From Candidatus Bathyarchaeota archaeon (GTDB lineage Archaea; Thermoproteota; Bathyarchaeia; Bathyarchaeales; DTEX01): DNA of 52,734 nt. The first letter of the stretch is position 1. Each line of letters starts with the position of its first letter. Where the stretch lies: assembly GCA_018396405.1 (NCBI GenBank), contig JAGTQD010000004.1:1-52734 (forward strand). The letters are read 5' to 3'. Both the position numbers and the translations under genes were made by a program. The notes under the pieces are model-generated. The model did not search any database. It saw only the letters and a program-made list of their open reading frames with translations, and was not told the origin of the DNA. This document shows, piece after piece, positions 7,482 through 41,380 of this stretch.

Positions 7482-8168
7482 ATGGTGATTAAGAATTCTA
7501 TGAGTTGGGAAGAGATTTTAGGCAACATTAAGAGCGCAATTGTGAACCTTGATATCGAGAACATTCAGAGATTATGCCTAGAAGCCATTAAAGCGGGGAT
7601 CCCAGCTTATGATATTATAATGAAGGGGTTTTCTAAAGGTTTAGAAATTGTTGGCGAAAATTATGAAAGAGGAGAATATTATTTAGCCGAGTTAGTCGTG
7701 GCTGGCGAAACCGTTAAAGAGGGCATGAAAGTCCTTGAGCCTTACCTAAAAGGTGATGAAGCCCAAAAAATCGGCAAGGTAGTTATTGGAACTGTCAGAG
7801 GAGACTTACACGACATAGGCAAAAATATTGTCGCAATACTATTAAGAGCATCTGGCTTTGACGTGATAGATTTGGGAGTGGACGTACCCCCAGAGAGATT
7901 TGTTGAGGCTGTCAGAGAGCATAAACCAGATATAGTTGCCATGTCGGCATTACTAACAACAACCATGAATGAGATGGAAAATGTCATCAAGGCGCTTAAG
8001 GAGGCGGGGTTAAGAAATAATGTTAAGGTGATTATCGGTGGCGCCCCCGTAACTGACGAGTTTGCAAAAAAGATTGGAGCTGATGCTGCTGCGAAAGACG
8101 CTGTTGAGGGCGTAAATATATGTAAATCGTGGCTGTATAGGGCTGATCAGTCATGTCAAGCGAACTAA
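7482..8168 (+). CDS. Corrinoid (B12-binding) methyl-carrier protein, MtaC/MtbC-like
   Basis: Helical cap domain plus GDLHDIGKN, SAL and IIGGAP. Confidence 0.93.
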   Translation: MVIKNSMSWEEILGNIKSAIVNLDIENIQRLCLEAIKAGIPAYDIIMKGFSKGLEIVGENYERGEYYLAELVVAGETVKEGMKVLEPYLKGDEAQKIGKVVIGTVRGDLHDIGKNIVAILLRASGFDVIDLGVDVPPERFVEAVREHKPDIVAMSALLTTTMNEMENVIKALKEAGLRNNVKVIIGGAPVTDEFAKKIGADAAAKDAVEGVNICKSWLYRADQSCQAN

Positions 8169-9226
8169 AACCCCGTGAAAGAATAAAAAGGATTTTAGAA
8201 CACCACGAGGCGGATCGCGTCCCAATTCATGATAGTATTTGGCAGGCAACAATTGACCGATGGAGGAGCGAAGGATTACCTCCCGGAGTTTCTCCAGAAG
8301 ATTACTTCGGCTTCGAGATCAGCATCTTTGAGGCGGATACGAGCCCACGTTTTCCAATCCTCGTGCTTCATGAAGATGAAGAATATATTGTCGAAAGGGA
8401 TCAATATGGTGGTGTAAGAAAAAACCGGAAAGATTATTCAACAACCCCCCTAATAATCGATTATCCATGCAAATCTAGAGAGGACTGGGAGGTTTCCATT
8501 AAGCCTAGACTCATCGCTGATGATTATAGGGTTGATTGGGTCTCCGGCCTTAGAAACTTCCACCGTGAGCATAGTCGTGGGCGATTCATAATGTATGGCG
8601 CCACAATAGGGTATGATAGAGCACAGAGATATATCGCCCCTGAAAGACTATTAAGGGCGATTATCAAGGAGCCTGATTGGGTTATTGACATATACCGGAC
8701 CGACGCTAAGCTCGTTATGGAAATGTGTGAGCGAATGATGAAAGGAGGTTTCAAATTTGACGGGGCCTTCCTTTACTGCGATTTAGGCTACAGAAACGGC
8801 TTATTCTTTTCACCAAAACATTTTGAGGAACAACTCCACCCGATTTTAAAAGAACTGTGCCAGTTCTTTCATAGCCATGGAATGTACGTTTTTCTACATT
8901 CTTGCGGCCGGGTTAAGGATCTCATACCCTATTTTATTGAGGAGGGAATTGATTGTCTACAGCCTCTGGAAGTTAAGGCTGGAATGGATTTAATAGAACT
9001 GAAAGAGAAGTATGGAGATAAAATTACGTTTATGGGTGGAATAGATACAAGGCTTATGTCGATAGACGACCCAAGACCAATAGAGGAGGAGATAAAAAGG
9101 AAAATAACCGTCGCTAAAGAGGGTGGAGGATATATTTACCATTCAGACCACTCTATTCCGAAGAACGTTAGCTTCGAAAATTACAAAAGAGTTATCGAGC
9201 TTGTTAAAAAGTATGGTAAGTATTAA
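8153..9226 (+). CDS. UroD-fold methyltransferase (MtaA/CmuA-like)
   Basis: DRVP, HSCG metal motif, GGID and DHSIP. Overlaps the corrinoid gene. Confidence 0.85.
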   Translation: MSSELKPRERIKRILEHHEADRVPIHDSIWQATIDRWRSEGLPPGVSPEDYFGFEISIFEADTSPRFPILVLHEDEEYIVERDQYGGVRKNRKDYSTTPLIIDYPCKSREDWEVSIKPRLIADDYRVDWVSGLRNFHREHSRGRFIMYGATIGYDRAQRYIAPERLLRAIIKEPDWVIDIYRTDAKLVMEMCERMMKGGFKFDGAFLYCDLGYRNGLFFSPKHFEEQLHPILKELCQFFHSHGMYVFLHSCGRVKDLIPYFIEEGIDCLQPLEVKAGMDLIELKEKYGDKITFMGGIDTRLMSIDDPRPIEEEIKRKITVAKEGGGYIYHSDHSIPKNVSFENYKRVIELVKKYGKY

Positions 9227-9325
9227 TGAATGATAGTTATGGACGATTCGTGGGGTTTCAACCAATAAAATTATTTGGCGACTGACCATAAAAATAAATT
9301 TAAACAAGGATTGGTGGGGAAGAGG

Positions 9326-11182
9326 ATGGTTGGTGGGTATGCTGGTAAAATACTGAGAATTAACCTCTCTAACAAAAAATTTCACATAGAGGATCTCGAT
9401 TTATCTTTGGCAAAGAGTTTGCTTGGCTGCCTTGGAATCGCATCTAAAATCATGCTTGAAGAAGTAGATCCAGCTGTGGAACCGTTTAGCCCAGAAAATA
9501 AGCTGATTTTCTTAACAGGAGTCTTAACAGGTTCCACAGCTCCGGCAGCATGTAAGTCTATTGTCGTATCAAGATCCCCCCTAACGAACATTTGGGGCGA
9601 ATCTGTTTTCTCAGCTAATACTGGAATCGAGCTTAAACGTGCGGGATACGACATGCTTATAATTGATGGAGCGTCAGACAAGCCAGTATACTTATGGATA
9701 CATGATGATAGCATCGAAATTAGGGATGCAAGCGGCTTCTGGGGCATGGACACCTACACAACCTGCGAAGCCATAAAGAATGATTTGGGTGAGAAAAAAG
9801 CTGCTGTTGTATGCATTGGCCCAGCTGGCGAGAATCTCGTCAGGATATCTTCAATTATAAGCGATAATGGTAGGGCTGCAGGACGGTGCGGTTTGGGCGC
9901 AGTTATGGGCTCAAAGAATCTAAAGGCTATAGCAGCTCTCGGCTCTAAAAATATAGAAGTTGCTAATCCAGGTCTTCTCAATGATCTAAGGAAGGAAATA
10001 ATAAGCATTACGAGAGAGCGTTTAAAGGCTCTCTCCGATTATGGAACTGCTAGGGGTGTTGTAGCTTTTGAAGAGATGGGAAACCTACCAATAAAAAATT
10101 GGACGAAGGGCAGGTTTCAGGGAGCCGAGAAAATATCTGGCATGAGGATGGCTGAGACAATTCTAGTGGGTAAAAAAGCTTGTTTTGCATGCCATATAGC
10201 TTGCGGAAGATATATTAGAGTAAGTGAGGGGCCTTACGCCCCCCTCGAAGGTTATGGCCCAGAGTATGAGACTATAGCAGCTCTCGGCTCCCTCTGCATG
10301 AATGATAATTTAGAGAGCATAGCAAAAGCAAACGACTTATGTAATAGGTTTGGGCTTGACACAATATCTACTGGCGCAACAATAGCCTTTGCAATGGAAT
10401 GTTACGAGAGGGGCATAATAACTAAAGACGATACTGGAGGAATCGAGCTTAACTGGGGTAACCTGGACGCGATAATCAAGGTTATTGAGCTTATAGGTCG
10501 GAGAGAGGGCATCGGCGCCATATTGGGTGAGGGGTCGAAAAGAGCAGCTGAGAAAATAGGTGAGGCTGCTGAGAGGTACGCGATGCATGTTAAGGGGCTT
10601 GAGATCCCAATGCATAGCCCATATCGATTCAAAGAGATGGGACTACAGTATGCGGTTTCTGAAAGGGGGGCTTGTCATTTAAGAGGGCTCTCCATGCTCC
10701 CGGCGAGAGGGATTCTTTTTCCGGATATAGGGTTTGATCGGCAAGTGGATGGATTCTCAATCGAGGGAAAAGCCCATTTAGTTAAGGTTATGCAGGATAT
10801 ATGCCGTGTAGTTGACGCTCTGGGACTCTGTAAGTTCGTATATCTTTTCGGCGGAGTGCCGCTAAGGAGACTCCCTCAACTTTACACGGCGGTGACTGGG
10901 TGGGAGACATCATTAGACGATTTAATGAGAGCTGGGGAGAGAATATGGATCCTTCAAAGGATCTTTAACGTAAGGATGGGTGTAAGAAGAAAAGATGACA
11001 TGTTGCCCAAAAGGTTCCTAGAGGAACCACTAAACGAAGGGGCCGCTAAGGGACAGATTGTCGAGCTGGAACCTATGCTCAACGAATTCTATGTGGAGAG
11101 GGGATTAGACGATGAAGGTAGGCCGAAAATGGAGAAGGTTCTTGAACTAGGCCTAAATTTTGCAGCAAAATATATTGCTTAG
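9326..11182 (+). CDS. aor: Tungsten aldehyde:ferredoxin oxidoreductase family
   Basis: SRSPLT, GRCGLGAVMGSKNLKAI, CFACHIAC, EYET, DTIS, RGACH and DALGLC. ATG 9326 taken as start. Confidence 0.93.
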   Translation: MVGGYAGKILRINLSNKKFHIEDLDLSLAKSLLGCLGIASKIMLEEVDPAVEPFSPENKLIFLTGVLTGSTAPAACKSIVVSRSPLTNIWGESVFSANTGIELKRAGYDMLIIDGASDKPVYLWIHDDSIEIRDASGFWGMDTYTTCEAIKNDLGEKKAAVVCIGPAGENLVRISSIISDNGRAAGRCGLGAVMGSKNLKAIAALGSKNIEVANPGLLNDLRKEIISITRERLKALSDYGTARGVVAFEEMGNLPIKNWTKGRFQGAEKISGMRMAETILVGKKACFACHIACGRYIRVSEGPYAPLEGYGPEYETIAALGSLCMNDNLESIAKANDLCNRFGLDTISTGATIAFAMECYERGIITKDDTGGIELNWGNLDAIIKVIELIGRREGIGAILGEGSKRAAEKIGEAAERYAMHVKGLEIPMHSPYRFKEMGLQYAVSERGACHLRGLSMLPARGILFPDIGFDRQVDGFSIEGKAHLVKVMQDICRVVDALGLCKFVYLFGGVPLRRLPQLYTAVTGWETSLDDLMRAGERIWILQRIFNVRMGVRRKDDMLPKRFLEEPLNEGAAKGQIVELEPMLNEFYVERGLDDEGRPKMEKVLELGLNFAAKYIA

Positions 11183-11466
11183 TGAGGGTGCAGATGATTA
11201 AAGTAAAACTAGTGTTCTTAGATGAAGATTTGAGAAAGGCTTTGGGAATTAAAGAGGATACCTTTAATCTTCCCGAAGGCTCAACGATTAAAGAGTTATT
11301 GTTGGCGGCTGCCTTAAAGTATGGTGAGAAAATTATAGAGAAAGTGTCAAAAGCTGGAACAATAATAGCGCTCAATGGCCAAAATATAGAGTTTCTGGGT
11401 GGGACGAATGCTAGATTATTCGATGGGGATAGAGTTGCAATAATCCCCCAGATAGAGGGTGGCTGA
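11182..11466 (+). CDS. MoaD/ThiS/SAMP ubiquitin-like sulfur carrier
   Basis: Beta-grasp pattern with C-terminal IEGG. Start overlaps the aor stop. Confidence 0.9.
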   Translation: MRVQMIKVKLVFLDEDLRKALGIKEDTFNLPEGSTIKELLLAAALKYGEKIIEKVSKAGTIIALNGQNIEFLGGTNARLFDGDRVAIIPQIEGG

Positions 11467-12674: not shown

Positions 12675-13682
12675 ATGGAACAAAGAAAGATTATGTCTCT
12701 TGGGCGTTCCTCATTAGTGATTTCTCTTCCGAAATATTGGACCCAGCTGGCCGGGTTAAAGGCTGGTGACATAGTCTCAGTAGCCGTTGGCCGAGACCGC
12801 TCCTTAATAGTTTATCCTGGCCTCAAAAAGGAAAAGGAGATGAGTGAGATAACTCTTCATATCGAGCCCGATGAGGATCTCTTTCTTATATCCAGAAAGA
12901 TATCTGCCTGCTATCTTAATGGTTACTCAATAATTAAACTTGTTTCAAAAAATTATTTCACACCTTCACAGCAAAGGGTTATACAAAAGACTGCCCGGAG
13001 ACTCTACATGCGCATCATGGAAGCCGATATAAGGGAAGTCCGCTTAATGACCCTCATGGATGAATCAAAGGGTTCAGTAAAGGCTAGTGTATCAAGGATG
13101 TATAATGTTTCTAGTTCTATGTGCCATGACGCGCTTACAGCCCTCAAAAACCATGATACTGATTTAGCCAGATCTGTATATATTCTCGGCGGCGAAGTCG
13201 ACCACTTCACTTTCTTTCTTTCAAGGTTAATTCGAAGAGCATCTATAGATCCATCTCTAGCGAACGATCTTGGACTCGACGCCATCGACTGCCTTGATTA
13301 TCAGTCCTTGATCTACAATATTAAAAATGTTGCTGATCAGACCACAAATATAGTAAAGCATATCATAATGCTTGAGGAAAGAAAAAAGAGGATCACTGAT
13401 CGATTATTGGAAAAATTATACTCTTTTGGTCATAATGCCCTATCTATTTACGAAAAAGCGTTCTCATTATTTTCGGGAGGAGACTTAAAAATATTAAGTG
13501 AAATCTCTAGATGTAAAAGTCAACTAAGAAAAATAGACGAAGAGATAGCAACCCTATCTTTTACGGAAGAAAAAAGTGCAGAGACGATATGCGCATGCTG
13601 CGCTTTACGCGACAGTATACTGCGAATAGGAGACTACGCAGCTAATATAGCCGAGATAGCGGTTAATCGGCTCTATAGGTAA
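12675..13682 (+). CDS. AbrB-PhoU family regulator
   Basis: N-terminal RKIMSLGRSSLVISLPKYW AbrB domain followed by two PhoU helical repeats (RIGDYAANIAE). Confidence 0.9.
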   Translation: MEQRKIMSLGRSSLVISLPKYWTQLAGLKAGDIVSVAVGRDRSLIVYPGLKKEKEMSEITLHIEPDEDLFLISRKISACYLNGYSIIKLVSKNYFTPSQQRVIQKTARRLYMRIMEADIREVRLMTLMDESKGSVKASVSRMYNVSSSMCHDALTALKNHDTDLARSVYILGGEVDHFTFFLSRLIRRASIDPSLANDLGLDAIDCLDYQSLIYNIKNVADQTTNIVKHIIMLEERKKRITDRLLEKLYSFGHNALSIYEKAFSLFSGGDLKILSEISRCKSQLRKIDEEIATLSFTEEKSAETICACCALRDSILRIGDYAANIAEIAVNRLYR

Positions 13683-13691
13683 ATCGTGCCT

Positions 13692-15416
13692 TCATTTCCT
13701 CTTTTTTGAAGGATAACTTAGCGTCACAGAGAGTTTTGAAGATAAAACTTCGCCTCTCAGGATCTTTCTTGCCAGCTGAAGGGCGTAGTTATATTCAAAA
13801 ATAGATGGTTTCTCTGCTCTCCGAGCTTCTCTTAGAATCTCCTGCTCCAGCCTATATTTTAGTCGGCCTATAGTCAAGGCGCCTATTGCATATACTCCTG
13901 GAACAATCTCTTTTGCATCGTCATCAAGCCTTATCCCCTCAACGCCCAGTGGTGGAACTGCGTTAACATCAGCTATAACCTTAACGGTCTTAACGGCGTT
14001 TAACATCTCTTTATCAATAACTTGAATACCAGCACCAGCAGCGCAGAAGATCACATCCGCCCTTTCAATAACCTCCATTTTCTTCTCCCTAGTTGGGGCG
14101 AAGACCCCCTTAACTTCAGCGTTATACCTTGTTCTAAGTAGATTTGATAAATTTACAACATACTCTTCCCCGTCTGTACGCTGCGGGTTAGGGCTAACTA
14201 TCGTAACATCGCATCCAAGCCTAGATAATAAGATCGCTACCGTTCTTCCAACAGCGCCAGTCCCGAGAACCGTACATCTTTTACCACTTAGGGCTCCAAG
14301 GCTTAAGCGAGCTAAAGTCTCTTCAACTTTAGCAACCATGGCGGCTGCAGTAGTATAGGCTCCGGCAGGATCAATTATGATGCTCGTTTTAAATGGCGGA
14401 AACATTGACTCCTGAACAACTTTAAAGACTTCCTCAGTCTTATCCATATCCTTTCCCCCAATGAAGAAGCATGTCCGCCTAATTCCCTTCGGATCCCTTG
14501 AAAAGATTGCGTCTTGAACTATCTTCTTCGCATCTTTTGCAGATACATTTTCATATGGGATAACAATGTTGAAGCCAGCGTCATAGGCCATACATATATC
14601 AAATGGGCTGGCTTTCTCATCTGTATCCAAAAAGAATAATATATATGGAATTTCCTCCTCAGTAGACTTTTTAATTACTGGTTTAATTTGAATTTGCATT
14701 ACCCTCAATAATTCCCTGAGGTCACTTGAGGATACTTTTTCTGTAAAAATTACTTTTTTCTCTGGTTTAATTACTTCTACTTCTACGTCAACGGATTCTA
14801 AAATCTTTTTGACACCGTTTACGTGCTCCGGGCTAGATAGATGTATGCAGACAATCTCCTCTTTATCGATCTTTCTAGCATTCTCAAGAATCCCCATCAC
14901 TATCCATCTTTCTCTAACAGAAAACTTTATTTCGCGTTCAGCTTCCTCAATTTCCTGCTGCAAATACTGTAAATAAGCGGTTAAGAATTCTTCTTCGAAT
15001 GTCCTCGCTTCTCTTTTTTCATCAGAAATTTCTTCAAGAGCTTTTATTATCTCATCCCTTAACCTTATCTTTTCATCCACTAAAGATGCAAGGCTCTCCT
15101 TTGCACGCTCATCGATATCGACAGGGAATAATGGCACATCTTTCTTTTTAAAGACCTGATATAAAGCGTTATTCTCCACAAACTCTTTCAATGTCCGGTT
15201 ACCCAGCTCCTCTGTTGCAAAGTCAGGTTTGACCTCGTTAATGAGTCTTTCAATAAATTCGCAGAAGGCTATTGATGGCTTGAAAGCGGATGGAACGGAA
15301 TTTCTAGATCTATCATAGATCGGCTTAGTGATCCAGAATGGTTCACTATACTCCTTCTCGACAATAAACACTTTCAATCTCTTCCCTTCAAGCGGACTTA
15401 TCTCAAGCGCCTTCAT
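13692..15416 (-). CDS. NAD(P)-dependent methylene-H4MPT/H4F dehydrogenase (MtdA/MtdB family) with a ~255-aa N-terminal extra domain
   Basis: ASPFDICMAYDAG, VQDAIFSR, FIGGKD, SMFPPF, DPAGAYTTAAA, GTGAVG and DVNAVPPLG in the C-terminal ~320 aa. Confidence 0.85.
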   Translation of the reverse strand: MKALEISPLEGKRLKVFIVEKEYSEPFWITKPIYDRSRNSVPSAFKPSIAFCEFIERLINEVKPDFATEELGNRTLKEFVENNALYQVFKKKDVPLFPVDIDERAKESLASLVDEKIRLRDEIIKALEEISDEKREARTFEEEFLTAYLQYLQQEIEEAEREIKFSVRERWIVMGILENARKIDKEEIVCIHLSSPEHVNGVKKILESVDVEVEVIKPEKKVIFTEKVSSSDLRELLRVMQIQIKPVIKKSTEEEIPYILFFLDTDEKASPFDICMAYDAGFNIVIPYENVSAKDAKKIVQDAIFSRDPKGIRRTCFFIGGKDMDKTEEVFKVVQESMFPPFKTSIIIDPAGAYTTAAAMVAKVEETLARLSLGALSGKRCTVLGTGAVGRTVAILLSRLGCDVTIVSPNPQRTDGEEYVVNLSNLLRTRYNAEVKGVFAPTREKKMEVIERADVIFCAAGAGIQVIDKEMLNAVKTVKVIADVNAVPPLGVEGIRLDDDAKEIVPGVYAIGALTIGRLKYRLEQEILREARRAEKPSIFEYNYALQLARKILRGEVLSSKLSVTLSYPSKKRK

Positions 15417-15606
15417 ATTTTATCACCAAATGTATATATTCAAAAACTAAATAAATATTTAATCGAAATATTATATGTAAAAAGTAATATCGTATATATC
15501 TTTGTTTGAAATCATCAGTTAATACTTAGAAACTGTTAATAAAGAGTTGGGGGACTCGCACTAAAATGAGTTCAAGTCTATTTTACTTAATTGGAATTTT
15601 GCTCCG

Positions 15607-15783
15607 CTAACTTAAATATAAAAATTTGAGGGTCATCCTTGTCCAGTGGGCTCTAACCCGCTCTAAAAGCAGGTATGACGCGTCAGTTATCGTTTATCCC
15701 TTAACCTTACGTCTTTTCTCCAGTCTCAATAAACTTTTTAGAATCTCCCTTTAACGATCAATAAGTATGTAAGTTCGAACCAT
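15607..15783 (-). pseudogene. Possible decayed small gene (Lrp/AsnC ligand-binding-like start)
   Basis: Reads MVRTYILIDR*REILKSLLRLE...* with in-frame stops. The resemblance is weak. Confidence 0.2.
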
Positions 15784-15936
15784 TTTGGCCATCATATTTT
15801 AATAAAAATATAATGGAGGTGGAAGCAACAATTAGACAAGATATAAAGAGATTTGCAGAAGACTGCAGATCACTTTAATAGTGTAGAAAAATTCTTCCTC
15901 TCATCTTTTTAATACTTAGAATATTCATTTAATCTT

Positions 15937-16028
15937 TCATAGTTTTCTCTTCGATAATACTGTAATGATTGTTGTGGTAGTGCTATTAATGTGAGGACTA
16001 TTGTTATCGACGGGTATTCTGGGATTAC
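15937..16028 (-). pseudogene. Frameshifted C-terminal remnant of a PEF-CTERM-type surface protein
   Basis: Minus strand reads VIPEYPSITIVLTLIAL, then after a frameshift TTTIITVLSKRKL-stop: motif, TM helix and basic tail. Confidence 0.55.
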
Positions 16029-16510
16029 CCAGTAGGCGCAATTGTCTCTGCAAAAATTGAAGATTACCATTATTTATTTATGATTGCTGCTATTTCCTTG
16101 CTTTAGCTATATTTCTTGCATTCCTATGAGAAGATTTTAACGTTATGTAATGTGCCTTCACCCATTATAACTTCGGTTTTCGACGCGACATCGTAGAATC
16201 TAAAACATGGGACTCTCAAAACCCTTTTTAGATCCTTGATTCCTATTCCCATTCCTTCATCTTCTCCCCAGCGTACTTCAAAAAACTAAATATCTTGTGG
16301 CATATCCAGCGCTCTCTTTAGCATCATTTTAGAATTAGACTTCGTAAGAATCTCTATCTTAATTAAAATTATTTGGCCACTCATCGCATAAGTGCGAATC
16401 TTTTTATTGGATCCACTAATAGAAGAGCGGCCTAAAGCCAAAAATGAGACAAAACATCTTAAAATGGAAAATTGTAATGGCGCATTATTTATGGTTCTCG
16501 AACCCAAAAG

Positions 16511-16648
16511 TGGCGGGCCCGCCGGGATTTGAACCCGGGATCTCCGGCTCTCCTTAGCTCCCTTCACGTCTGAGGTTCACTTTAGAAGGCCGGCGCGTTA
16601 TCCATGCTACGCCTCCCGAATCGGGTTTGAGCCCGATTTCACGGGCCC
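16511..16648 (-). tRNA. tRNA-Arg(TCT) with two introns (16613-16639 at 9/10; 16550-16582 at 37/38) and encoded CCA
   Basis: The spliced 78-nt cloverleaf is GGGCCCG-TG-GCGT-AGCATGGATA-ACGC-G-CCGGC-CTTCTAA-GCCGG-AGATC-CCGGG-TTCAAAT-CCCGG-CGGGCCC-G-CCA, with all four stems fully paired. Confidence 0.95.
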
Positions 16649-39496: not shown

Positions 39497-40129
39497 TTGT
39501 CTTTAGAGGATCTTGTTGAGGCATTCATTAACCTCGAGGAGGAGAAGGTTCTTAAAAATGTTGAGAGTCTAGTTAAGATGGGTAAAAATCCATATGAAAT
39601 CCTTGAAGCATGTAGAAGAGCGGCAGAAGTTGTAGGCGAAAGGTTCGAGAGAGGCGAATATTTCCTTTCCGAGCTCGTTTATGCTGGTGAAATATTCAAC
39701 AATGTTATGAAAATTGTTCTCCCACTAATTAAGAGGGAGATTAAGCCACTAGGCACGATACTTTTAGGTACAGTCCAAGGAGATGTACATGATATAGGTA
39801 AAAATATTTTTAAGGCCTTTGCAGAGGCTGCCGGGTTTAAAGTTATAGATATCGGTGTAGATACTCCGCCGGAGAAATTTGTGGAGGCTGTTAAAATATA
39901 TAAGCCTGATATTGTCGGCATGAGTGGACTACTAACAATAGCTTATGACGCGATGAAGAGGACTGTTGAGGCCCTGAAAGAGGCAGGTTTAAGGGATAAA
40001 GTGAAGGTGATAATTGGAGGGGGTAGAGTGGACGAGAATATAAAAAGGTATACTGGGGCAGATGAGTGGGCTGATAATGCAATAGTAGGTGTAAAAAAGT
40101 GTAAGCAGATGCTAGGGCTTGGGGGATGA
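39497..40129 (+). CDS. Corrinoid methyl-carrier protein
   Basis: GEYFLSEL cap, GDVHDIGKN, SGLL and IIGGG. Confidence 0.93.
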   Translation: MSLEDLVEAFINLEEEKVLKNVESLVKMGKNPYEILEACRRAAEVVGERFERGEYFLSELVYAGEIFNNVMKIVLPLIKREIKPLGTILLGTVQGDVHDIGKNIFKAFAEAAGFKVIDIGVDTPPEKFVEAVKIYKPDIVGMSGLLTIAYDAMKRTVEALKEAGLRDKVKVIIGGGRVDENIKRYTGADEWADNAIVGVKKCKQMLGLGG

Positions 40130-40135
40130 GATGCC

Positions 40136-41380
40136 ATGAGAGTCGTAAAGGAGTCTAAACCAAAAACTCCTGAGGAAGCCTTAACAGAGAGAAGAGAGAG
40201 AATAGAAAAGGCCGTAGAACTAAAAGAGCCAGATAAAGTGCCCTTAATATTATCTTCTTGTGGTGATCTCTTACGTAAATATATTACTGGTCACGACCTT
40301 TACTTTAACTATGAGAAAGCCCGTGAAGCAGTTATAAAATTTGTTAAAGACTACCAGGTAGATATGTTTTTACCAGTTTTAGGAGCTGAGGGCTTCATAT
40401 TCGCCTTAGCCTTCGCTGAGTACCCGGATATAGCGCCAGCCGTTAGATTCTGGTCCGGACCCATGCACGACATCCTTAAAGATAAGTTCACGAAGTGGCC
40501 TGGTAGGGAACTCCCAGAGGACAGTATTTTCCAGTTCATTGGCGGACAATTTATGGACATTAAAGAATATGCCAAATTCTCTGAGGATCCGATAGCTTTC
40601 GTAAATGAGGTTATTCTCCCTAGGTCATGTATAAACTTAGAGAAGATTGGATCGCCGAAAGCCAATGCCGCATTAATTAGGCTTGGATCCGAGGCATCTA
40701 AGGCTCTCAAATTCTTAGTAGATGTTACTGTGGATTTAGCTAATGTTGGAATGCCCTCATTGCCCCTAACATCTGCTTATGCCCCACTAGATTATATAGG
40801 AGACTTTCTTAGAACCCCCGTGGGAGTCCTTTTAGACATAAGGAGATACCCAGATGAAGTTAAACGCGCTTGTGAAGCGCTTGTTGAGCCAATAATTAAG
40901 GTTGCGTTGGCTCTAAAACCAGCCGGAGCAAAATATGCATTTATACCATTACACCTCAACGAGTATTTATCTCCTAAGCTGTATAACGAATTTTATTGGC
41001 CGACACTTAAAAAAATTATAATAACTCTATATGAACAGGGAATAAAATCATTTGTGTTTTTCGAGGGATGGCACGACGCCCATCTTGAAACAATATTGGA
41101 TCTACCTAAAGGTTGGGGGGTAGCATTGTTCGAGAAGACTGATGTAAGGAAAGCCAAAAAAGTTTTAGCTGGACATACTTGCGTAATGGGTGGGATCCCA
41201 TCATCACTATTACTTGAGGCATCACCAGACAAAATCAAGGAATATATAAAGAATCTCTTGAAGGAAGTGAAGGTTGGTGGAGGGTTTATATTAGCAAACA
41301 GTGTTGAAATTCCAAAAGATGTTCCCTCAGAGAATTTAAGAGCGCTAATAGAGGTCGTGGAAGAAGAGGGAAGATATTAG
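40136..41380 (+). CDS. UroD-fold substrate:corrinoid methyltransferase, O-demethylase MT1-like
   Basis: EPDKVP, PLDYIGDFLR, FIPLH, FYWPTLK, FFEG and FE. Directly follows the corrinoid gene. Confidence 0.8.
   Translation: MRVVKESKPKTPEEALTERRERIEKAVELKEPDKVPLILSSCGDLLRKYITGHDLYFNYEKAREAVIKFVKDYQVDMFLPVLGAEGFIFALAFAEYPDIAPAVRFWSGPMHDILKDKFTKWPGRELPEDSIFQFIGGQFMDIKEYAKFSEDPIAFVNEVILPRSCINLEKIGSPKANAALIRLGSEASKALKFLVDVTVDLANVGMPSLPLTSAYAPLDYIGDFLRTPVGVLLDIRRYPDEVKRACEALVEPIIKVALALKPAGAKYAFIPLHLNEYLSPKLYNEFYWPTLKKIIITLYEQGIKSFVFFEGWHDAHLETILDLPKGWGVALFEKTDVRKAKKVLAGHTCVMGGIPSSLLLEASPDKIKEYIKNLLKEVKVGGGFILANSVEIPKDVPSENLRALIEVVEEEGRY

Follow-up and report, generated by a model that had tools for sequence, protein, structure and literature searches.

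Our analysis of a 52,734-nucleotide stretch of DNA from a Candidatus Bathyarchaeota archaeon (GenBank assembly GCA_018396405.1, contig JAGTQD010000004.1, positions 1 to 52,734; hereafter the window) indicates that one gene on its reverse strand encodes a genuine fusion, in which an MtdA/MtdB-type dehydrogenase follows an N-terminal domain (N-domain) of about 255 residues. This arrangement is conserved among Bathyarchaeia and also among Asgard archaea. Moreover, our survey shows that two things go under the name mtd: a short enzyme of the NAD(P) type, confined to genomes that lack the F420-dependent methylene-tetrahydromethanopterin (methylene-H4MPT) dehydrogenase, F420-Mtd, and a long form with a conserved TraB-like domain, which accompanies F420-Mtd and in some cases shares a putative operon with it. 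We tentatively favor, with slightly less than even confidence, the reading that the long form would be a second, NAD(P)-linked dehydrogenase beside F420-Mtd, carrying an accessory metal- or ligand-binding N-domain of TraB/Tiki fold that would pair with a paralog where one is present.

The open reading frame (ORF; Table 1) begins with ATG and encodes 574 amino acids (aa) before its stop; we judge this start to be right because the N-terminal sequence MKxLEIxPLEGK is kept in homologues. A word-indexed homologue search with the whole protein returned 904 proteins at E ≤ 0.001. The best 120 of these 904 are all 562-598 aa long, with query coverage of 98-100% and identity of 62-97%, and those that carry a name are methylene-H4MPT dehydrogenase of Bathyarchaeia or Bathyarchaeota, apart from one that is labelled differently. 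Since all of these best 120 are full-length, an assembly artefact or a mis-joined ORF is ruled out; in an alignment of 21 homologues, conservation is as high in the N-domain as in the catalytic half. An earlier note on this DNA, made from the letters alone, had proposed an apparently undescribed fusion. Its reality is borne out by the full-length homologues and by its recurrence in other genomes of the class, and its novelty holds within the open full-text literature, subscription papers and supplements being outside that scope, where we found no description of the extra domain: the passages concerning this gene in PMC9012536, PMC5103831, PMC12533140, PMC11291895 and bioRxiv 10.1101/726976 name it only mtd or mtdB and leave the extra domain unmentioned.

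The C-terminal half is predicted from its sequence to be an MtdA/B-type enzyme catalyzing NAD(P)-dependent methylene-H4MPT oxidation. The Pfam domain Mpt_N (PF09176) matches over its full profile, 1-81, with E 3.9e-29 and 101.1 bits against a cut-off of 27 (104.9 bits in the genome-wide profile search), and is followed by Rossmann-type NAD(P) Pfam matches. In a phmmer search against PDB, residues 259-552 align with chain residues 5-287 of Methylorubrum MtdA (6tlk, 6tge, 1lu9) at E ~5e-36, so that the MtdA/B motifs claimed in the earlier note extend to agreement with a solved enzyme over both of its domains. The glycine-rich motif G385-T-G-A-V-G390 is invariant in all 21 aligned fused homologues. 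The usual stand-alone layout of about 290 aa does not apply here, the protein having 574 aa with residues 1-255 extra and the catalytic module complete; no specific NCBIfam model fits the 574-aa protein. The family, which the earlier note describes as characterised in methylotrophic bacteria and planctomycetes as stand-alone enzymes, is not confined to bacteria in that form: short archaeal forms are common.

How is the fusion distributed, and what does it occur with? Among 151 genomes of the class to which the window belongs (Bathyarchaeia), 32 contain Mpt_N: 11 as the fusion, 19 as a short stand-alone protein (ORFs of 296-350 aa) and 2 in a longer ORF. A sensitive N-domain profile at E ≤ 1e-50 finds 13 genomes, namely the 11 with fusions, one in which the gene is cut by a contig end (G062) and one in which the domain stands alone (G005); in the other 21 genomes with Mtd it finds no N-domain. 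F420-Mtd (PF01993), which is present in 97 of the 151 genomes, occurs in 10 of the 11 fusion genomes, in 0 of the 19 with the short form and in 0 of the 2 with an Mtd-Mer fusion. In G038, G130 and G145 its gene is the one directly upstream of the fusion, in the same orientation; in G097 the distance is 1.2 kb. The proposal that the fusion serves as an NAD(P) route in place of F420-Mtd is not borne out by this co-occurrence. The stand-alone N-domain gene of G005 (L012:6004-6690, plus strand, 229 aa) belongs to a 100%-complete genome without Mpt_N and with F420-Mtd, and is the only case of the N-domain uncoupled from Mtd. The Mtd module also has another partner in the class: G063 encodes, beside an FrhB-like gene, a 639-aa Mtd-Mer fusion (L013:5236-7152, minus strand) with Mpt_N at 20-100 and a luciferase-like/Mer domain at 321-612, and the corresponding place in G107 holds an ORF of 647 aa; neither genome has F420-Mtd. 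We also considered whether the two Mtd enzymes might jointly stand in for Fno (TIGR01915), in a transhydrogenase-like role; the counts, 1 of 11 fusion genomes vs 41 of 140 others, give this idea no real support.

Outside the class, the fusion is found in Asgard lineages, where 33 loci encode a stand-alone paralog of the N-domain. At 23 of the 24 loci analysed, the gene next after the paralog, on the same strand and overlapping it or 0-18 nt off, encodes 556-561 aa; at L039, a complete chromosome, the following gene encodes only 412 aa. All six scanned genes next to an Asgard paralog are N-domain-Mtd fusions, and F420-Mtd is present in 5 of 5 Asgard genomes with the paralog-fusion pair. The pair is flanked, in several arrangements (L029-L060), by HdrA/MvhD-like, CCG (HdrB/C-like), FrhB-like and GltD/NfnB-like genes. 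One member of the Bathyarchaeia, G053, has the same order of paralog and then fusion, followed by NfnAB-like genes. A quick tree built from 60 Mtd domains has no long forms in its main clade of short Bathyarchaeial proteins (support 99), places another lineage of short ones within the clade of long Bathyarchaeial forms (support 99), and unites the Asgard long forms in one clade (support 100); the deep nodes are weak (support 30), and G053/G029, P0125, P0130, P0131 and P0143 fall apart from the main long clades.

The source genome of the window is the single exception to the co-occurrence of fusion and F420-Mtd in the class. Its assembly (1.49 Mb, 108 contigs, 95.6% complete) contains, among genes of one-carbon (C1) metabolism, one Mpt_N gene, which is the fusion, one Mch (E 4.9e-119), two Ftr and CdhD/E, and profile searches of it found no FolD C-domain, Mer (TIGR03555), TraB or F420-Mtd. 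Because Mer (TIGR03555) was not found, the methylene-to-methyl step is unaccounted for in this assembly, despite Ftr, Mch and CdhD/E. For F420-mtd, comparison with the same-genus genome G020 is informative: the genes upstream of F420-mtd there match source contig C25 to within 258 bp of its end, the match stops about 1 kb short of the F420-mtd position, and the following 3.5 kb of G020 have no match anywhere in the source assembly. The check that the earlier note proposed thus has a divided outcome, in that the gene was not found but its syntenic place lies just past the end of C25. From this synteny an assembly gap is the simplest reading of the apparent lack, with true loss as a possible alternative.

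We now turn to the N-domain. Residues 1-255 have no Pfam match even at E 10 and no NCBIfam match, and a phmmer search against 1.84 billion representatives (50% clustering) yields only 82 proteins at E ≤ 0.001. We scanned 58 of these 82 with Pfam, leaving out 24 fragments shorter than about 160 aa: none of the 58 has a Pfam family on the N-domain region, 18 carry Mpt_N, mostly as N-domain followed by Mtd in 550-580 aa, and the remainder are stand-alone proteins of about 190-280 aa, those with names being 'hypothetical protein' of Promethearchaeota. One protein, P0143 (496 aa), is built the other way round, Mpt_N occupying 16-95 and the TraB-like domain 322-487.

Sequence profiles and a structural model together lead us to predict that this is a remote TraB/GumN/ChaN-like domain of the Tiki superfamily, without the first G-x-x-H. 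The earlier note had pointed to four motifs that echo TraB/GumN/ChaN, and all are present (EVKPDFATEEL at residues 61-71, PVDID at 98-102, VRERWIVMGI at 167-176 and HLSSPEHVNGVKKIL at 192-206); the echo survives as a remote likeness. Against a reference profile built from 10 genuine TraB/GumN ORFs (PF01963 matches) from genomes of the same class, hhalign aligns an N-domain alignment over 152 collinear columns with probability 61%, P 8.1e-5 and score 38.3, pairing KPDFATEEL with KPsVVALEL, VDID with ID.P, RERW with ERN, and SSPEH with GxGH. Controls with one side reversed score 11.2 or 12.4 (P 0.71, 0.55) and controls against an unrelated Mtd profile 17.1 and 19.6, the P values of all controls lying between 0.16 and 0.71; with a query profile of the close fused forms alone, the score is 22.2 and P only 0.025. 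The PF01963 HMM itself matches nothing on residues 1-255 at E up to 10, nothing in the 58 relatives and nothing genome-wide. In the Atlas, the named cluster nearest to the N-domain is TraB/GumN, at a weak 0.78.

An AlphaFold2 model of the N-domain (pLDDT 88.3, pTM 0.82) has a folded core at residues 13-216 and a weak end, residues 245-255 falling below pLDDT 50 and blocks over 221-255 being weak as well. It contains five strands (13-20, 66-70, 96-99, 187-194, 212-216) flanked by helices, and the modelled order of elements, b1-a-b2-a-b3-helices-b4-a-b5, is that of a genuine TraB protein folded as a control, a match that concerns order and not strand parallelism. Passages of PMC6254334 describe the Tiki-superfamily core as five parallel strands flanked by helices. 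Foldseek against PDB gives nothing at E ≤ 0.001 for the model, whose match list is dominated by a helical hairpin; rank 2 is 8b6h_DQ at E 0.029, the same entry that is the best neighbor of the TraB control. More broadly, the two models have whole-domain structural neighbors in common (a ciliate complex IV subunit, ChaN and EreC), methylases included. Searched against PDB by sequence profile, the N-domain reaches a best E of 0.076 and TraB has no match, and because of the latter the Tetrahymena subunit DQ cannot be confirmed by sequence as a TraB protein.

The same passages of PMC6254334 present Tiki-superfamily members as hydrolases with a His-Glu pair, the catalytic 2His/2Glu motif lying at strand ends. 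As the earlier note had remarked, the fusion has no G-x-x-H near its N-terminus: where the 10 genuine archaeal TraB proteins all have an invariant G17 and H20, it reads V-E20-K-E22-Y. With the first His absent, the full catalytic motif is not present, though H198 and E70 are kept and align with TraB. What else is kept was assessed by setting 44 long forms (23 from Asgard archaea, 21 Bathyarchaeial or unplaced) against 38 stand-alone paralogs. In the long forms E20 is conserved in 95% and E22 in 98%, positions E69, E70 and D100 are 100% acidic, R168 and W171 are both at 100% and H198 is at 93%; H192 is not conserved (18 of 44). In the paralogs the site has decayed, with E69 at 21%, H198 at 24%, E22 at 47% and E20 at 42%. 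In the model the site residues lie at C-terminal strand ends or on the helix before strand 4, and E70, D100, R168 and H198 are the residues that hhalign pairs with TraB-invariant positions. Such conservation suggests that the fused copy has a pocket for binding or catalysis, with the paralog as its degenerate partner.

What could such a protein do? In the reading that we favor, the fusion would be a second methylene-H4MPT dehydrogenase, NAD(P)-linked, working alongside the F420-dependent one. With the fusion beside F420-Mtd, the F420 and NAD(P) pools would be linked through the methylene/methenyl-H4MPT couple, or the C1 pathway would gain an alternative electron carrier. The N-domain would presumably not be a TraB-type protease; its pocket of conserved Glu, Asp, Arg and His, placed by the model at C-terminal strand ends, the location of active sites in the Tiki superfamily, would bind a metal or a small ligand and modulate or assist the dehydrogenase in cis. 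Where a paralog with a decayed pocket is encoded just upstream, as in Asgard archaea and some Bathyarchaeia, it would pair with the N-domain of the fusion. A complex prediction of the N-domain with the Mtd domain scored 0.00, a result that is uninformative either way.

Other explanations have to be weighed against this one. The N-domain might be a scaffold only, a docking or oligomerization module with a ~60-residue-long hairpin whose conserved polar residues are structural. The module would tether Mtd to the paralog or to Hdr/Mvh/Frh/Nfn-like electron-transfer complexes. This we consider unlikely, though the long hairpin in the model speaks for it, as do the paralog directly upstream in 23 of 24 analysed Asgard loci and in G053, the HdrA/MvhD-, CCG-, FrhB- and GltD/NfnB-like genes around the Asgard pair and the NfnAB-like genes after the fusion in G053. 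However, the most conserved residues are charged and sit at strand ends, which is more typical of active or binding sites than of interfaces, and no Hdr/Nfn-type neighbors are found around the fusion in the window or in five Bathyarchaeial loci (G020, G145, G130, G067 and G097). Less likely still, the N-domain could be unrelated to TraB/Tiki, an independent alpha/beta domain whose likeness comes from a common three-layer arrangement. This reading would have to explain why hhalign pairs four invariant TraB residues with four near-invariant N-domain residues, 18-27 score units above the controls, why the order of secondary structure is that of the genuine TraB model, why the whole-domain neighbor list, down to the methylases, is the same as for the TraB control, and why the nearest named Atlas cluster, weak as that match is, should be TraB/GumN.

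A more far-reaching alternative, which we regard as improbable, is a bifunctional enzyme in which the N-domain, a Tiki/Ere-type hydrolase, would take the next step and hydrolyze methenyl-H4MPT (or methenyl-tetrahydrofolate, methenyl-H4F) to the formyl form, making the protein a non-homologous analogue of FolD. The hydrolase character of the Tiki superfamily, with its His-Glu pair (PMC6254334, in the passages cited above), speaks for it, as do the near-invariant Glu/Asp/Arg/His constellation of the long forms, the occurrence of both fusion orders, which is typical of enzymes acting in sequence, and the missing FolD C-domain in the source genome. Yet a canonical Mch is present in that genome, another residue stands in place of the motif's first His, stand-alone paralogs exist with a decayed site, G005 has the N-domain without Mtd, and the literature consulted, as far as its available passages go, offers no precedent for such chemistry in the Tiki superfamily. 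At the far end of our scale stands the original proposal that the fusion is an NAD(P)-linked substitute for F420-Mtd or Hmd, oxidizing methyl groups from nearby corrinoid methyltransferase systems. The source genome taken alone would favor it: F420-Mtd was not found there at 95.6% completeness, the fusion is its only Mpt_N gene, and the window holds two corrinoid-protein/URO-D-like pairs. The wider comparison points the other way, for F420-Mtd is also present in nearly all fusion genomes of the class and in all five Asgard ones, a substitute role fits instead the short forms, which never occur with it, the F420-mtd site of G020 maps just past the end of contig C25, and the other loci examined have no corrinoid gene next to the fusion.

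The features of the gene and its convergent neighbor are collected in Table 1. That neighbor, which combines PhoU and AbrB/MazE domains, adjoins the N-domain gene in 8 of 8 Bathyarchaeial loci examined, being convergent in the window, G020, G145, G130, G067 and G097 and divergent in G053 and G005; a regulatory link between the two genes is possible, judging from this gene order. On the other side, the ~1.1 kb directly upstream of the fusion (15417-16520) contains no ORF of at least 60 aa, gives no Rfam match and shows no trace of F420-mtd or of the flavoprotein gene found at this place in G020 (best tblastn E 0.57). It is followed at 16521-16615 (minus strand) by a tRNA match to Rfam (30.9 bits, drawn out over 95 nt) that ARAGORN does not report and that is probably an intron-containing archaeal tRNA. 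The two corrinoid-protein plus URO-D-like methyltransferase pairs (7482-9226 and 39497-41380) lie 4.5 kb and 24 kb from the fusion with unrelated genes between, and no corrinoid gene was found beside the fusion in 7 other Bathyarchaeial loci or among 19 neighbor proteins from 9 Asgard loci; the link to nearby corrinoid systems drawn in the earlier note is therefore not upheld. An aldehyde:ferredoxin oxidoreductase gene and then a ThiS-like gene occupy 9275-11466, without conserved synteny with the fusion.

Table 1. The fusion gene, its parts and its convergent neighbor (window coordinates).
Feature	Coordinates	Strand	Size or basis
Whole gene: TraB-like N-domain (predicted) and MtdA/B-type dehydrogenase	13692..15416	-	574 aa
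N-terminal domain, residues 1-255	14652..15416	-	AlphaFold2 model, hhalign to TraB, structural neighbors, conservation in 44 long forms
Long antiparallel helical hairpin, residues 103-181, inserted between N-domain strands 3 and 4	14874..15110	-	Model
Mpt_N domain (PF09176), residues 271-351, pterin-binding N-terminal domain of MtdA/B-type enzymes	14364..14606	-	Pfam
Rossmann-type NAD(P)-binding domain, residues 352-552, glycine-rich G385-T-G-x-x-G390	13761..14363	-	Pfam, PDB alignment
Gene with PhoU domain and AbrB/MazE-type DNA-binding domain, convergent, 9 nt from fusion stop	12675..13682	+	Conserved neighbor in Bathyarchaeia

Bathyarchaeia and Asgard archaea are central to ideas on sediment carbon cycling and on the metabolism of the archaeal ancestor of eukaryotes, and reconstructions of the Wood-Ljungdahl pathway in them rest on annotations that call this gene simply 'mtd'. 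That this one name covers two kinds of protein changes the reading of electron carriers in the methyl branch. The N-domain, for its part, represents an uncharacterized family, with 82 representatives at 50% clustering and no Pfam family, that has a conserved polar site and a degenerate paralog partner. If the Tiki-fold cyclohydrolase were true, Bathyarchaeia and Asgard archaea would possess a counterpart of FolD, not homologous to it, that runs alongside the classical F420-Mtd/Mch route.

While we focus here on a single protein, each of its parts invites comparison with a known system. With TraB/PrgY/GumN (PF01963) and the wider Tiki superfamily (Tiki, ChaN, erythromycin esterases, HopBA1) the N-domain shares a predicted five-strand alpha/beta core with the same order of elements, a collinear profile match pairing Glu, Asp, Arg and the second His, and the same structural neighbors. 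In contrast to the TraB family, it falls below every Pfam threshold, has V-E-[KS]-E-[YF] in place of the first G-x-x-H, carries a helical hairpin of about 80 residues between strands 3 and 4, and is invariably cytoplasmic and, G005 alone excepted, either joined to Mtd or encoded next to its gene. The catalytic half is closest in plan to Methylorubrum extorquens MtdA (1lu9, 6tge, 6tlk), an NADP-dependent methylene-H4MPT/methylene-H4F dehydrogenase of 288 aa with Mpt_N and Rossmann domains that aligns end to end with the corresponding part of the fusion; MtdA lacks the ~255-aa N-domain, whereas the fusion is twice as long, has an archaeal host and accompanies F420-Mtd in genomes. Bacteria are not known to have F420-Mtd. 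Among archaea, the short stand-alone MtdA/B-type proteins of Bathyarchaeia and other groups (~300-350 aa; for example P0252 and the MSBL1 protein P0282) have the same catalytic domains, with 37-49% identity to residues 256-574, but no N-domain, none being detected elsewhere in those genomes either, and unlike the fusion they are found only where F420-Mtd is absent. FolD, the bifunctional methylene-H4F dehydrogenase/methenyl-H4F cyclohydrolase, likewise joins a pterin-C1 dehydrogenase to a second domain in one polypeptide; the N-domain has no sequence relationship to it, and a hydrolase role for the N-domain would be hypothetical. The Mtd-Mer fusion of Bathyarchaeia (G063) differs in that its partner is a C-terminal domain from a known next-step enzyme family (luciferase-like/Mer) and its genomes are without F420-Mtd, yet it is like our fusion in joining the same MtdA/B-type module to a partner within this same class.

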